From assembly GCA_040954595.2 (NCBI GenBank), contig CM082592.2:2992735-3056734 (forward strand): a DNA stretch of 64,000 nucleotides, written 5' to 3'. The notes under the pieces are model-generated. The model had not been told where the DNA came from, did not search any database, and saw nothing but the letters and a program-made list of their open reading frames with translations. Numbering within the stretch: position 1 is the stretch's first letter; each line of letters begins with the position of its first letter. Both the position numbers and the translations under genes were made by a program. The DNA comes from Balanoglossus misakiensis. Lineage: Eukaryota; Animalia; Hemichordata. Shown piece after piece: positions 27,435 to 39,152 of the stretch.

Positions 27435-30400
27435 ATGGAACTGATCGAAAAACAAGGCGATCGCATTGCACCGGCGGCCGGGGCAAACCCAGATTCCCCA
27501 TCGGGTGATTCATCACCAAATTTTAACTTCGAAAGTAAGCACACGGGTACTCAGCCGGCAGATGCGCCACCAGGGACACCGCAACGCTCTACCGACGCCA
27601 ACAAAGACGCCTTCGCTGAAGTTGCCAGAAGGTTTATGCTGAACACGACGGCGCACGGAATCCCCCGACTAGCGGCGTCGACCAAGTTCCACGCCCGCCT
27701 TGCGTGGTTCATCATCGTGTGCGGCGCCATGTTTGCATTTATTGTCCAGGCGTCGCTGTTGGTCGACCAGTTTCTGAAGTACGACACGACGAATAAGGTA
27801 ACGGTGGTTCTCGTAGTATCACGTAATGCTGATGTAGTAAAATATATTCTGGATAGTATGGATCCTGGCACGGCTGGTCTGTATATGTTTTACTATAATA
27901 AGCTGAAACAACAGGTCAATCCGATTAGTTCAATTACAGACAAGAGTCTGTTCTTCCTCTTTGGTTCAATCAATAATAATTTACGATATTACTCATGCTT
28001 TAATTCTACTATGAGTTATCGTTTCACATCATTCATGTACATGAAGGTAGGTGTGTAGTGTAGGCCTACCAAAAACTGCCCAAGTACACTATTTCGATTG
28101 TCGAAAGTAGCATCATTATCTCATTTCAATGGTTCTTGTCACCGACATCAAACATGTATAATCACGGTATTGATCCACACTGTATCGTTTTGGGCTTTAC
28201 TAGATAACCATGGTAACGAAACCGTCACTTCAGTTTCCGACTGTCACGGTTTGTAACACGAACAAGCTGAGACGTAAAGCTATTGCTGACTCTCCGTACA
28301 AGGATATGCTTGTAATTGACGATGAAACCGCCTTGCCCTATTACGGTACGGTTAACAAGTAGTCTCTATGGAAACGTTTGAATTAAAATATCAATAACAA
28401 TGCGTGAATTGGTGAACCATCATTCAGTGTGTCATCACAAAATTTTGAAATTCAATTAAATTCAATAGTTATTGCATGTGTGAACTTGATTCGATTTTAT
28501 CACACGCAATCACCCCCCCCCACACACACACACGTAAACAAATACACACAATCTTACACCCCCCCCCCCAAATTGGCAGTGCTGTACACAGAATGGTTAG
28601 CTAAAACACATGGTGCCCTTGAAAGGGGTGATGAACTCAAATTCCACTCCCCTGCAAACTTTCTGCAATTATTATTCAGCTTGGTTCTACGTCTCACACT
28701 CAGCAATTATTTGTAACTCTAGCCCCATGCATGGATGGTGACTTCATGTGTGAAACGGGTTCCCTATGTCTGAAGCAGTTCCACAGGTGTGATGGTGTAC
28801 GCAACTGCAAAGAGGACGGCAGTGATGAGGTTAATTGCACGTACGGTAAGATGGATTCTCATTTTATAATTACGCCACAACGTTGTGGAATTATTTTTTC
28901 ACAGATGGTTGCCTTAACTTTCATCATGGCCGACTTGGAGAACGCATTGTCTGATGGATTAATTATGTTTTGACAGGAAATTGCGGCGAAGACCAGTTTC
29001 GATGTGAGCATGGCAGCGAGCAGGGAGTTTGTATCGAACTGCGCCTGCGCTGCAACAGACAGATTGATTGCTACGAGGGAGAGGACGAATATGGTTGTGG
29101 TCAGTGGAAATTGTTTCCCCGGTTGTTACAACATTATTCTTCGGTTGCAAAGTCGCTTGAAATGTGTGCGTTGTTTACACGGCGATCGCCTATGTGTCCG
29201 GTTGCATGGAACGAGTCAAAGATCTAACGGTGCATGGAAACACATAGCCCGGAGACCAGGGCGTCGAAAAGAGACGCCGTTGTATTCTAGATCGACGCCC
29301 TGGTCTCCGGGCTAGGAAACACAGCAAGCAACCACTCTTTTAGGGGGTCTTTGGAGAGCATAAAAAGACGAGGAGATATTTGAGAGTCATTCTTTTGGCA
29401 TTTGTTGGTGTGTGTGCGCGTGAATTTTTTCTTTTCTTGTTAGAAGGTAGTATTTTATTATTCTTACACGACACACAGTCGACAGTTGTTGGAGACCTAT
29501 CCCCCTCCCCCTGTTTGTTTCATGGAGATACCTTTCTCAACTCGATTTATTACACGCCTTGGTGTGATCGACCATTGCACGAGAAAGGAATCATACCAGA
29601 GAATGAATAACCTTTCAACTTTCCTTGTTTCCCCCGAAAATAAGAATGTAAAGGCTCCGAATTCCAATGCGCCGACCAAAGAAAGTGCATAGCGAAGAAA
29701 AGACGCTGCGACTCGCGCATTGACTGTGAAGATGGGTCAGACGAGGTAGAATGTCCATGTAAGTATACTTTAGACAGTTTTGCAGAAAACTTTAATCACT
29801 GACACTGTCATATCTTTTCTTTACTTTGCTATACTGAGAGACCTTGGCAAGACATACTGTTTAAAACGGACTTTCCGTTCTTGCTGCGAAACATTTTGAT
29901 AAATTGTATTTAAACGTTGTACAAGCCACCGCGCGCGAGCGCCCACTCAACAAAACAACAGGCCGAAGTTTACCGGAAGTGACGTTTTCTTAATGCGCAG
30001 GTATTCTGCGCAAATTGAATTTTCGCATTACCCGGACTTTCCTCGTTTCTGTCCTGTCTCTCCTTTTCTTCGAAATCCTTATACTATAGATTTAAAAATA
30101 AGATTATACATTTTGATAAATAGCGGCCGATTGTGTGAATGGTTTATGGTGTAGTGCTCATATGAGATGTATGCCATATGAAGCTGTTTGTGATGGCTTT
30201 AGAGACTGTCCAGATGGTTTGGATGAAAGGAACTGTTCAACCATTGCGACACCACCAGGTGAGCAAAAAGTACTTAAACAGAAAGATAACTTGTCCGCCT
30301 ATAGTGTACACGTCCGTCACGTCTCAGAGCGATATACCAATATAGAAGCTAAACAACGAATAATTCGACTGAGTGGTCATTTGTGAAGTGTTTTCTGTGT

Positions 30401-36400: not shown

Positions 36401-39152
36401 CAACGGACGGCTTAACAATCACGCCCGGTACCATGACGTCAATAGGAATGGAAGAGGTTCGTTTTGTCAAGTCCCCAACACAACTACCGCGTAGTATGCG
36501 CAGATGCATATTACAATTTTCACAAACCCACAATGGTGTCATTGGCTTCGAGTAAGTTTTAACGAAGCTCCGTGATCCAACGTTCACAGGTCCTTCCTCG
36601 ATTTGTTTCACTGTGTGCACACACCACAGCACACGCCTGTGTTCGTGTTGCTTGGCCATGGCTTGTTTGTCTACTGTCTATGGTCTACCTTAACTGTTCC
36701 TTTGACCATTAACACTTCTTTTGTAAGACTAAAATGAGTTGCCACAGTATTAGGAAGACTGTGGATTGTCTTGTGTGACACTCCATTTTATCACTGAGCT
36801 TTCTTGTCTGCATTTAAAGCTAAGATACAAAAGACGAGATGGTCTCTATGGAGATTGTTACAAATCAAAGGATTCATATGTTTCACTATATGGAAGTCGC
36901 TATGAGTACGACGTTCAGGTAGGTAAACACAAGTTCATGTCTGACAGCTAATTCTTCTTATATACTAGAAAATGGATTGTAAACAATTTCTTGGGAACAT
37001 GATAACAGCACGTCGTCCATTTGTGAGCTTACTGAAACGTTACTAAAACCCCGAGGATTATCACCAATAGTTGCCAATGATTTCGGAACTGCCAGTCTAG
37101 ACTTAAACCCCATTTTAGTCTTGCAGAAATATGTGCCTTCAGTCGACAATAGCCGAGAGGTGTGGTTGTGCGCAGACGATCAACATCGATACCGTGCCGC
37201 CATGCTCAGTACTCAACAAAACTCAAGGTAAAGAAAGAAAGAAAGAAAGAAAGAAAGAAAGAAAGAAGGAAAGAAAGAAAGAAAGAAAGAAAGACAGCTG
37301 GCGTATGATTGACTGACTTCTGTGTGATGTTACTGCGAACGACATCTTCTATTCCTCGTTGTCTTGCAACATTCAGTGTAACCAGAATTATTTTAAATAA
37401 TGTGTTACCATTTCCGATCCCTTTTTACAGATCTGTGTCAGCAACTTGTTTCTTTCTTGTACCGCACAGACGCACTTCCGTGCAAGAGTAAATGTAAGGA
37501 AAAGTGCGAGTAAGTCTCCTGAAATCCATAGATGACTTTTCTCCCTCTCCCCCCCCCCCCCTCTCTCTCTCTGACCTCTCTGTGTGTAATAAAAGACCTC
37601 ACAGATCGACTGGAGAAAACCTAAAAAATCGCCTTTTACGAAAATGCGCATGTTACCTACATCAACAATTTGCAGTCATTCTGAAATACATCAATTCACT
37701 CTTAGCGAACCAAGTTAAATTTGAGAGGATGACCAAAATCGGCCTGGTTGCATGTTTTCAGAGTTTGGCATTTGTGTGTTCGTGATTGCATCGACTCCTA
37801 TACAATTCAGAGAATTTCCTTTTCACTTTTGGTCTCAGGGAAACGACGTTCGCACTGAATACAGCCCAATCAATGTGGCCGTCTGAAGTGTACCTGGTAA
37901 GGTGCTCCATAACACTTTCAATCCCCGGTTCTTGCATTAGTTATTGTTGACATTTGGTGTTTATGTGGAGGAAAGCCTTTGTTTTCCATTGCAATCTTTA
38001 TCAAGTTAATCCACCTGGTGTTTGATAAAGCTGATTAAAAGAAAGAAGCCAGGTAATTCTACACTGTTCCTTTGCATATAATCTTCGTTTGTGAGGTCAT
38101 CCAAATCTATTATACCTTTCTCTCGTTTTTCTTGTGACTTCCAGGCCCATTTGCTGAGGGCGATTCACACCACCAACCCCAAGACACTTAACATCAGTAA
38201 CATGGAGGGTGTGAAGTAGGTTGCACGGGGAACGCAGTTATATATTCATGGAAAACAACAGTCATTTCAAATGCGGACATATGATTCTACCTTTTACAAT
38301 GGCCCTCATATAATTAGGGCTAAAAGAAAGAAATTGATCAACAAAGACATTGTTATATGTATTGAGTATTACATCAGAGAGAAATAGGCTGGTTTTTTTC
38401 TTCTTTTGTAAAAGCATCTTTCCCCGGGGTCTATGGTAAAAGCAATGATCGACCTGTAACAGGCAAAGGAATTTCAGTCTACCTTTAGCTTGTCTCGGTA
38501 TCTTCCATGTCCTCACCGCGAGAAAACAGCTTACAACAGCTGCAAGACCAGAAGTTTTTGCAGTTTACAGTTTTGTTTACCATTACCGTTATTGTCCATT
38601 TCAGGTTAAACCTGGCCAGTCTTGAGATCTTCTTCGACTATCTGTCATACGGACTGTTAAGTGAACAACCATCCTACCCAGTAAGAACATAATTTATAAA
38701 TGTGTCCGGTTAGATATGAATTTATTTCGACCAAGTGCTTCAAGTGATTTGATGTACGTTCTCTGTCTACTCTGTCATTCAAAGCTTGGTTTACCTGACA
38801 AAAATGTCGTGGCCGAGAAGGAAATTGAACGTTTTTCACCCATCAGCTCTAACATGATGGTATACTGCGTAACACCATTGAATAAATACAAATTCAGTGT
38901 CGATACAACACTGTTTTACACAATCTTATAGTGTCTCTTCAGATCTAGTTTCACCTGCCTGAATGCTAATAAACTGATAATCTGATTCTTCAACAGTTCG
39001 AGAGCTTGTTCAGTGACATTGGTGGCTCGCTGGGACTCTACATTGGCCTGTCATTTATCACCGTGTGCGAGTTCTTCGAATTCGTTTTTGAGGTCATCCG
39101 TTTATGTTCTCGAAACAACAATGGAGAAGTTCGCACTGGGGTGCATGCTTGA
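27435..39152 (+). CDS. DEG/ENaC/ASIC-superfamily channel subunit with 8 LDLa and 3 CUB domains inserted in the ectodomain (~1263 aa, 26 exons)
   Basis: Exons 27435-27797, 28204-28345, 28723-28845, 28977-29099, 29645-29758, 30124-30258, 30585-30713, 31053-31252, 31383-31563, 31800-31996, 32136-32316, 32702-32809, 32976-33172, 33499-33661, 34195-34290, 34884-35006, 35505-35802, 35955-36061, 36293-36456, 36820-36918, 37119-37227, 37431-37509, 37839-37896, 38145-38215, 38605-38680, 38997-39152 total 3792 nt in one frame. Family motifs: NTTAHG, TM1, FPTVTVCN, GHQL..FVLQCSYDG, YGNCFKFN, GLKLTLFVEQ, Cys-rich thumb, TM2 SDIGGSLGLYIGLSFITVCE. Confidence 0.92.
29245..29314. mobile_element. 70-bp palindromic mini-element with 9-bp TSD in a channel intron
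   Basis: TAGCCCGGAGACCAGGGCGTCGA...TCGACGCCCTGGTCTCCGGGCTA; TSD GGAAACACA at 29236-29244 and 29315-29323. Confidence 0.88.
30424..30570. repeat. (CAT)n microsatellite, intronic
   Basis: About 49 CAT units ending 14 nt before the LDLa5 exon. Confidence 0.97.
31053..35006 (+). other. CUB1-CUB2-LDLa6-CUB3-LDLa7-LDLa8 exons of the channel
   Basis: CUB signatures SPNYPASYP..C / CPYDFLQ / FNSD...GHGY, SPGYP, and SPNYPMNY..GRGF; LDLa motifs DCADRSDE, HCDDGSDE, DCPNGIDE. Confidence 0.9.
37230..37293. repeat. (GAAA)n microsatellite, intronic
   Basis: Begins right after the splice donor at 37228. Confidence 0.95.

Follow-up and report, generated by a model that had tools for sequence, protein, structure and literature searches.

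A DEG/ENaC channel subunit from an acorn worm carries LDLa and CUB modules in its finger domain and belongs to a family with exchangeable finger cassettes

We analysed a 64,000-nucleotide stretch of the genome of the acorn worm Balanoglossus misakiensis (contig CM082592.2, positions 2,992,735 to 3,056,734; hereafter the window, in whose own numbering all positions are given). A gene on its forward strand, at 27435..39152, encodes a subunit of the DEG/ENaC channel superfamily whose ASC domain is split into two halves by a 688-residue insert of LDLa and CUB modules in the finger. The original prediction, made from the letters of the window, had described this protein by its LDLa and CUB modules. 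The pairing of CUB with LDLa is not what defines it, because the gene turned out to be one member of a large family in which the cassettes at this site are exchangeable. The single gene is one example of a modular channel family for which we found no description, and the family is the larger result.

The 26 exons of the gene join to 3786 nt, or 1261 amino acids plus the stop codon, with zero internal stops and canonical AG/GT ends at 25 of 25 introns, in agreement with the intact frame originally predicted. All introns are short (130-593 bp). Pfam was run exon by exon and covered 25 exons, all but exon 23, which at 19 residues is too short. Ldl_recept_a matched eight exons (E 3e-7 to 4e-11), CUB matched five of the six CUB half-exons, and ASC matched exons 1, 2, 19 and 26 (profile positions 1-87, 206-260 and 428-455). 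Exon 11, the CUB half-exon without a match, aligned at 55% with the latter half of CUB2 in P0001, the Ptychodera flava protein XP_070576037.1. By Pfam and by alignment to P0001, the insert (exons 3-16, 2064 nt) holds eleven modules in the order LDLa x5, CUB x2, LDLa, CUB, LDLa x2, the same order as predicted for a segment of about 690 residues. Each LDLa module is a single phase 1-1 exon and each CUB module a 1-0-1 exon pair, and therefore the gain or loss of any module stays in frame. The insert lies in the finger and within one gene, as had been proposed. It had also been placed between the beta2 motif and GHQ; it does sit inside that stretch, without filling all of it, since 37 residues (helix alpha1 and a linker) precede it and about 80 residues of conserved finger come after. 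A six-frame search found no further LDLa or CUB exon, and no paralogue, elsewhere in the 64-kb window. The features of the gene are as follows.

27435..39152 (+): whole coding span, DEG/ENaC subunit, start provisional; P0001 aligns over residues 53-1254 at 52%
27435..27797 (+): exon 1, cytoplasmic N-terminus, HG motif, first transmembrane segment (TM1), start of beta1
27654-27656 (+): H74 of the HG motif, exon 1
about 27690-27767 (+): TM1, exon 1
28204..28345 (+): exon 2, beta1-beta2, finger helix alpha1, conserved PYY linker; ends in phase 1
28723..28845 (+): exon 3, LDLa1, the family's most conserved module, phase 1-1
28977..29099 (+): exon 4, LDLa2, phase 1-1, positionally conserved
29645..29758 (+): exon 5, LDLa3 (Pfam)
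30124..30258 (+): exon 6, LDLa4 (Pfam)
30585..30713 (+): exon 7, LDLa5 (Pfam)
31053..31563 (+): exons 8-9 (31053-31252, 31383-31563), CUB1 (Pfam)
31800..32316 (+): exons 10-11 (31800-31996, 32136-32316), CUB2, last acidic site lost
32702..32809 (+): exon 12, LDLa6 (Pfam)
32976..33661 (+): exons 13-14 (32976-33172, 33499-33661), CUB3 (Pfam)
34195..34290 (+): exon 15, LDLa7, with a counterpart here in P0004 and none in P0001
34884..35000 (+): exon 16, LDLa8, last module
35505..35802 (+): exon 17, post-insert finger, signature helix (likely alpha2), alpha3, GHQ
35651-35653 (+): signature Trp W906, exon 17
35741 (+): GHQ, exon 17
35955..38680 (+): exons 18-25, palm, beta-ball, Cys-rich thumb and knuckle, each aligning in order to P0001
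35955-36061, 36293-36456, 36820-36918, 37119-37227 (+): exons 18-21, ASC Pfam match on exon 19
37431-37509, 37839-37896, 38145-38215, 38605-38680 (+): exons 22-25
38997..39152 (+): exon 26, second transmembrane segment (TM2), short tail, stop
39012 (+): small Deg-site residue S1216, exon 26
39045-39053 (+): GxS filter (GLS, residues 1227-1229), exon 26

The start codon at 27435 is provisional. The frame is open upstream to 27204 with an in-frame ATG within 27204-27434, an AG resembling a splice acceptor precedes the proposed ATG at about 27403-27404, and P0001 is 39 residues longer ahead of the HG motif. The true N-terminus may thus be longer than modelled, or supplied by an upstream exon. Within the span we also noted an alternative in-frame acceptor 30 nt inside exon 2 (28230-28233), an alternative in-frame donor 6 nt past exon 16 (35004-35006), and two microsatellites, (CAT)49 at 30424-30570 in intron 6 and (AAAG)16 at 37230-37294 in intron 21.

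Relatives were retrieved with the channel core as 16 and 50 long proteins, and a further search contributed the best 150 of 348 matches at E up to 1e-30. Exon 17 as the sole query returned three Ptychodera flava proteins, all combining ASC with LDLa. P0001 has the layout LDLa6-CUB2-LDLa-CUB-LDLa (ASC Pfam E 2e-68) and P0004 (Ptychodera flava XP_070565678.1) the layout LDLa7-CUB2-LDLa-CUB-LDLa2; both resemble the window protein in having ASC split by LDLa and three CUB modules in the same order, and differ from it in LDLa number. Identity between P0001 and the window protein is 74% in the N-terminal core, 44% in the insert and 62% in the C-terminal core (C-core), and P0001 is likely its orthologue. 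Both Ptychodera proteins are automatic RefSeq models named 'uncharacterized protein', and every tree placed them as the sister of the window protein (support 99).

A phylogeny of the channel core had been suggested as a check on the original prediction, and when run it placed the window protein inside a clade of acorn-worm and echinoderm channels with LDLa in the finger. The main tree was a FastTree of the C-core with 183 rows, from which 13 short matches and one LRP-like protein were omitted; trees were drawn with midpoint rooting, groups were named after the trees had been seen, and named ENaC, ASIC and FaNaC proteins were not among the rows. In this tree the window protein falls in a 73-row branch with support 91, of which the inner 68 rows have support 96. 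In a 36-row tree, 14 of 14 sampled acorn-worm and echinoderm members formed one branch (support 99). The part of the finger next to the core is fixed across the clade. LDLa follows beta2 in all 45 of the 73 branch rows that include beta2, and the seven branch rows lacking LDLa are all fragments missing beta2. In 40 of 44 cases the best match of the first module is window LDLa1, and in 33 of 44 that of the second is LDLa2. Among proteins with both beta2 and a first LDLa, taken from the first 64, that LDLa starts 37-38 residues past beta2 in 29 of 34 and at most 60 residues past it in 34 of 34; the shortest complete clade members retain two to three LDLa. Within the protein, conservation is highest in the 41-residue signature segment that follows the insert (median identity 0.61 over 33 relatives, against 0.57 for TM2 and 0.32 for the thumb), whose Trp is nearly invariant (44 of 45). 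A related W...D(F/Y)SD segment occurs in insert-free relatives. The window protein has LDLa1 about 37 residues past beta2, the signature Trp helix and the core grouping of this clade.

The middle of the cassette is what changes. Paralogues keep the first LDLa and the downstream finger helix, while the modules between are swapped among kringle, PAN, F5/8, SRCR, HYR, TSP1 and CUB. Family cassettes between beta2 and GHQ combine LDLa with kringle/PAN, with F5/8 type C, with SRCR, with HYR or with TSP1 and CUB, or consist of LDLa alone, and one partial family protein has a ShK module. Hosts among the matches listed are Ptychodera, Saccoglossus, Glandiceps, sea stars, a brittle star and a crinoid. 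In RefSeq and UniRef the family proteins are labelled uncharacterised or 'LRP2-like'. Four channels (P0016, P0021, P0012 and P0025) carry the name 'low-density lipoprotein receptor-related protein-like' and are invisible to name-based surveys. Four LDLa-finger channels (P0017, P0018, P0077 and P0101) have about 600 additional residues ahead of the HG motif, which reflect either a fusion of gene models or yet another layout. FN3 occurs in two of them, P0017 and P0077, and was excluded from the tally of finger modules because it precedes the HG motif. C-type lectin, PAN_4 or ShK modules precede GHQ in further DEG/ENaC proteins (P0185, P0116 and P0076).

The site between beta2 and GHQ is also loaded with modules in amphioxus, acoel and snail DEG/ENaC models, all uncharacterised. 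The amphioxus models carry F5/8, kringle and link modules and, unlike the window protein, no LDLa; the acoel Symsagittifera model has LDLa, CUB, SRCR and TSP1; and the snail models (Biomphalaria, Bulinus) have LDLa (LDLa x2) at the finger site and sit on a separate tree branch. Records P0131, P0139 and P0188 each have one LDLa and one CUB at the site. In the supplementary alignment of PMC9949801, two acoel rows (Cmac_6572_p1 and csub_c17319) have two LDLa-like modules directly after beta2. Since the sources given there are transcriptomes together with canonical resources, these rows likely provide transcript support for the layout in acoels. A single origin of all LDLa-bearing channels, snails included, was rejected by the approximately unbiased (AU) test (p 0.0005, for a group chosen after the tree was seen), while one origin for the ambulacrarian and acoel-like forms, a group likewise named after the tree, was not rejected (AU p 0.62).

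Predicted structures of two relatives bear on the fold and on the insertion site. The model of P0006 (19 sequences; predicted local distance difference test, pLDDT, 64.7; predicted template modelling score, pTM, 0.50) has the hand-shaped ectodomain fold. Its top match was the FaNaC structure 7yvb (Z 27.6, root-mean-square deviation (rmsd) 5.0, 373 aligned residues), with ENaC and ASIC both at Z 27.2; rmsd over these matches was 3.5-5.2 for 309-373 aligned residues. In the model of P0024 (58 sequences, pLDDT 75.1, pTM 0.64), pLDDT was 84-85 for alpha1 and the linker, 88-93 for LDLa1 and 72-88 for most other LDLa, and 88-95 for the post-insert finger, where the signature Trp is in a helix. The models predict a DEG/ENaC fold in which the finger is ordered on either side of the insert. 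In ENaC, according to passages of Noreng et al. (PMC6197857), the GRIP domain sits between alpha1 and alpha2, and alpha2 has a conserved Trp. The family Trp falls nine residues from the position of that Trp, an offset taken from alignment starts rather than from residue-level alignment. Exon 2 alone and exon 17 alone found no channel match in the PDB, and the alpha2 assignment therefore rests on the offset and the prediction; an ESM Atlas search returned no usable match. Judged by the offset, the insert likely occupies the position of GRIP in ENaC.

The core motifs of the superfamily are intact, as predicted. The window protein has the HG motif (H74-G75), TM1 by hydropathy, a Cys-rich thumb and GLS at 1227-1229; TM2 is supported by Pfam and by the models and fell short of the hydropathy cut of 1.8. 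Since HG, the small Deg-site residue and GLS are intact here, and also across the family, a working pore is likely. With ASC running from TM1 to TM2, the HG motif, two membrane helices and a G/S-x-S filter, the protein is firmly a member of DEG/ENaC. It is not an ASIC, an ENaC, an EGAS or a Neto protein. Its C-core has its best PDB sequence match in ASIC (E 3e-49). However, counted from beta2 against hemichordate ASIC rows, the positions of ASIC H73 and D78, wrist/palm residues treated in PMC9949801 and used here as the mark of an ASIC, are Thr (T118 and T123), which makes ASIC-kind proton gating unlikely. Vertebrate ENaC (SCNN1A/B/G/D) is similar in fold (Z 27.2 on P0006), in HG and GxS, in the finger Trp and, likely, in having an extra domain between alpha1 and alpha2. 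It differs in that GRIP is described, in passages of PMC8791634 and PMC6197857, as a small beta domain that carries paired polybasic sites, whereas the extra domain here is 688 residues of LDLa and CUB. No R-x-(R/K)-R site occurs within the window insert or anywhere in P0001 or P0006, the only such site of the window protein being at residue 1048, outside the insert and absent in P0001, and the exon 26 tail has no C-terminal PY motif. Double cleavage of the ENaC type is unlikely given the missing R-x-(R/K)-R sites, and was rejected. FaNaC and other peptide-gated channels, which gave the top fold match (7yvb, tied with ENaC and ASIC) and the best PDB match of exon 1 (E 0.013), differ in having no mobile modules. 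EGAS-1 to -4 of C. elegans are described in part of PMC10424705 as DEG/ENaC proteins with added extracellular-type modules, which are EGF rather than LDLa/CUB. Pfam found no EGF match in 25 window exons. Neto, LEV-10 and the stems of matriptase and enteropeptidase are strings of CUB and LDLa, and Neto and LEV-10 are stand-alone single-pass proteins. Unlike these separate proteins, the window modules are in frame inside a pore-forming subunit. The analogy to Neto and LEV-10 drawn by the original prediction fits the CUB-bearing subgroup and does not extend to the whole family, as CUB with LDLa is not family-wide.

The chemistry of the modules bears on possible ligands. In LDL-receptor repeats, a Trp or other aromatic before the fourth Cys and both middle Asp capture lysine, and a terminal Asp-Glu pair binds calcium. 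The six Cys and the terminal Asp-Glu pair are kept in eight of eight window LDLa. A Trp two residues before the fourth Cys occurs in none of the eight, and in 21 of the 293 modules that were matched in 65 proteins. Lipoprotein binding of the LDL-receptor type, which had been among the suggested ligand types, was therefore set aside, and a structural or other protein-binding role is favoured. The acidic residues that we take to mark calcium-binding CUBs are present in CUB1 of the window protein, P0001 and P0004.

The explanation we favour, giving it about even weight, is that of a trimeric cation channel that would be opened or tuned by an extracellular macromolecule binding the finger cassette. 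LDLa1, the linker and the Trp helix would form a socket conveying movement to the finger, thumb and gate. Ligand choice would be set by the middle modules, which in this protein are CUB and LDLa, and the ligand would probably be a protein bound with calcium. The anatomy is receptor-like: the proximal socket is fixed, and the distal cassette joined to it consists of known binding modules that can be exchanged. Several observations weigh against this explanation. The structure predictions were of P0006 and P0024 rather than of the window protein and gave no contacts, and in P0006 the signature segment is below pLDDT 50. An aromatic residue (Tyr) occupies the ligand-stacking position in one of eight LDLa, and both middle Asp are present in three of eight. 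The C. elegans EGAS channels, which also bear modules, gave no oocyte current according to a passage of PMC10424705. The insert has diverged faster than the core (44% as against 62-74% identity to P0001) and module number differs between orthologues, so that loose tethering or clustering fits this drift as well as specific binding does. In such a case the cassette would be a built-in auxiliary or clustering domain that anchors, traffics or clusters the channel, much as Neto and LEV-10 do as separate proteins, while the gate would be controlled by a small ligand, a peptide or an ion acting on the conserved finger. We regard this as doubtful. It agrees with the CUB and LDLa content, with the varying module number among P0001, P0004 and the window protein, and with the finger signature being kept regardless of cassette and recurring in related form in insert-free relatives. 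However, CUB is confined to some subgroups, the cassette is inside the gating finger rather than terminal, and the LDLa1 spacing is constant within one residue in 29 of 34 proteins.

We consider it unlikely that the cassette instead grips matrix, mucus or a neighbouring cell so that force opens the gate. Adhesion-type modules (TSP1, HYR, CUB, F5/8) do occur at the finger, nematode degenerins are among the nearest matches outside the clade, and MEC-4/MEC-10 are described as mechanosensory in a passage of PMC10507113, but the diversity of the cassettes and their lineage-specific expansion would better fit ligand recognition. Protease systems often contain kringle, PAN, CUB and LDLa modules, the terminal Asp-Glu pair is present in eight of eight LDLa, and the GRIP position is likely, all of which would suit a brake that shuts the channel as the GRIP tract does in ENaC and is freed by cleavage, low calcium or acid. 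With no R-x-(R/K)-R in the insert, and with modules that are disulfide-closed domains rather than a short tract, such a brake is distinctly improbable. Least probable by far is a gene-model artefact, with the modules either part of a nested gene or skipped in every transcript, the two cases by which the original prediction could have fallen. Skipping of exons 3-16 would preserve the frame (2064 nt), the supporting relatives are mostly automatic gene models, and P0006 is without LDLa1 and most of the cassette. Against this, the flanking introns of 377 and 504 bp are too small for a nested gene's own ends, and a nested gene was rejected because no start, signal or membrane exon of its own fits them; the alpha1-linker-LDLa1 join is conserved from acorn worms to sea stars, LDLa-free members number zero of 45 with beta2, and the two acoel rows in the examined part of the PMC9949801 supplement have LDLa directly after beta2. 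For the family at large, we tentatively suggest that the channels may be an overlooked family of ionotropic recognition receptors, in which exon-shuffled lectin-, scavenger-, kringle- and CUB-type cassettes would couple the binding of proteins, glycans or microbes to the opening of a sodium pore. The habit of loading the finger was perhaps already present in an ancestor shared by acorn worms, echinoderms, acoels and amphioxus, and would have arisen again in snails.

The expectation of finding no functional description was borne out in the literature searched, while the proteins themselves were already present as automatic RefSeq models. Full-text searching found no paper on a DEG/ENaC layout with LDLa/CUB in the finger; subscription journals were thinly covered, and a description may exist. 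'LDL' was absent from the searched passages of the DEG/ENaC papers PMC9822975, PMC9949801, PMC9234716, PMC8791634 and PMC10507113, and 'kringle' from those of the four DEG/ENaC papers in which it was sought. Family motifs were absent from the readable supplementary files of PMC9822975, where a positive control worked and where line breaks can hide motifs. The searched passages of the hemichordate genome papers PMC4729200 and PMC11175523 contained no 'ENaC', 'amiloride' or 'sodium channel', those of the SRCR survey PMC10855680 neither 'amiloride' nor 'sodium channel', and those of a Xenoturbella preprint one unrelated 'kringle' passage. The introduction of PMC9822975 names protons, peptides, bile acids, proteases and force as known stimuli of DEG/ENaC channels. 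A series found in nature, with a single pore and finger combined with at least eight kinds of binding module, would show that whole receptor ectodomains can be accommodated in the finger, and would offer a direct route to how the finger drives the gate. Published trees contain many 'uncharacterised' ambulacrarian channels (PMC10507113, in the part consulted); the family would give part of them a likely job, and it flags names such as 'LRP2-like' that hide channels. If the cassettes merely anchor the channel, the finding shrinks to a striking case of domain shuffling.

Elsewhere in the window, an open stretch on the reverse strand at 62946-62485 encodes a TIR domain (Pfam TIR_2 E 6e-10) and probably represents the final exon of a Toll-like or adaptor gene, and another at 1105-755, also on the reverse strand, has a death effector domain (Pfam DED E 4e-9). 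Tandem arrays occupy 4949-6186, 22724-24559 and 40626-41365, with units of 128, about 240 and 171 bp, and 6408-6443 holds a short run of telomere-like TTAGGG.

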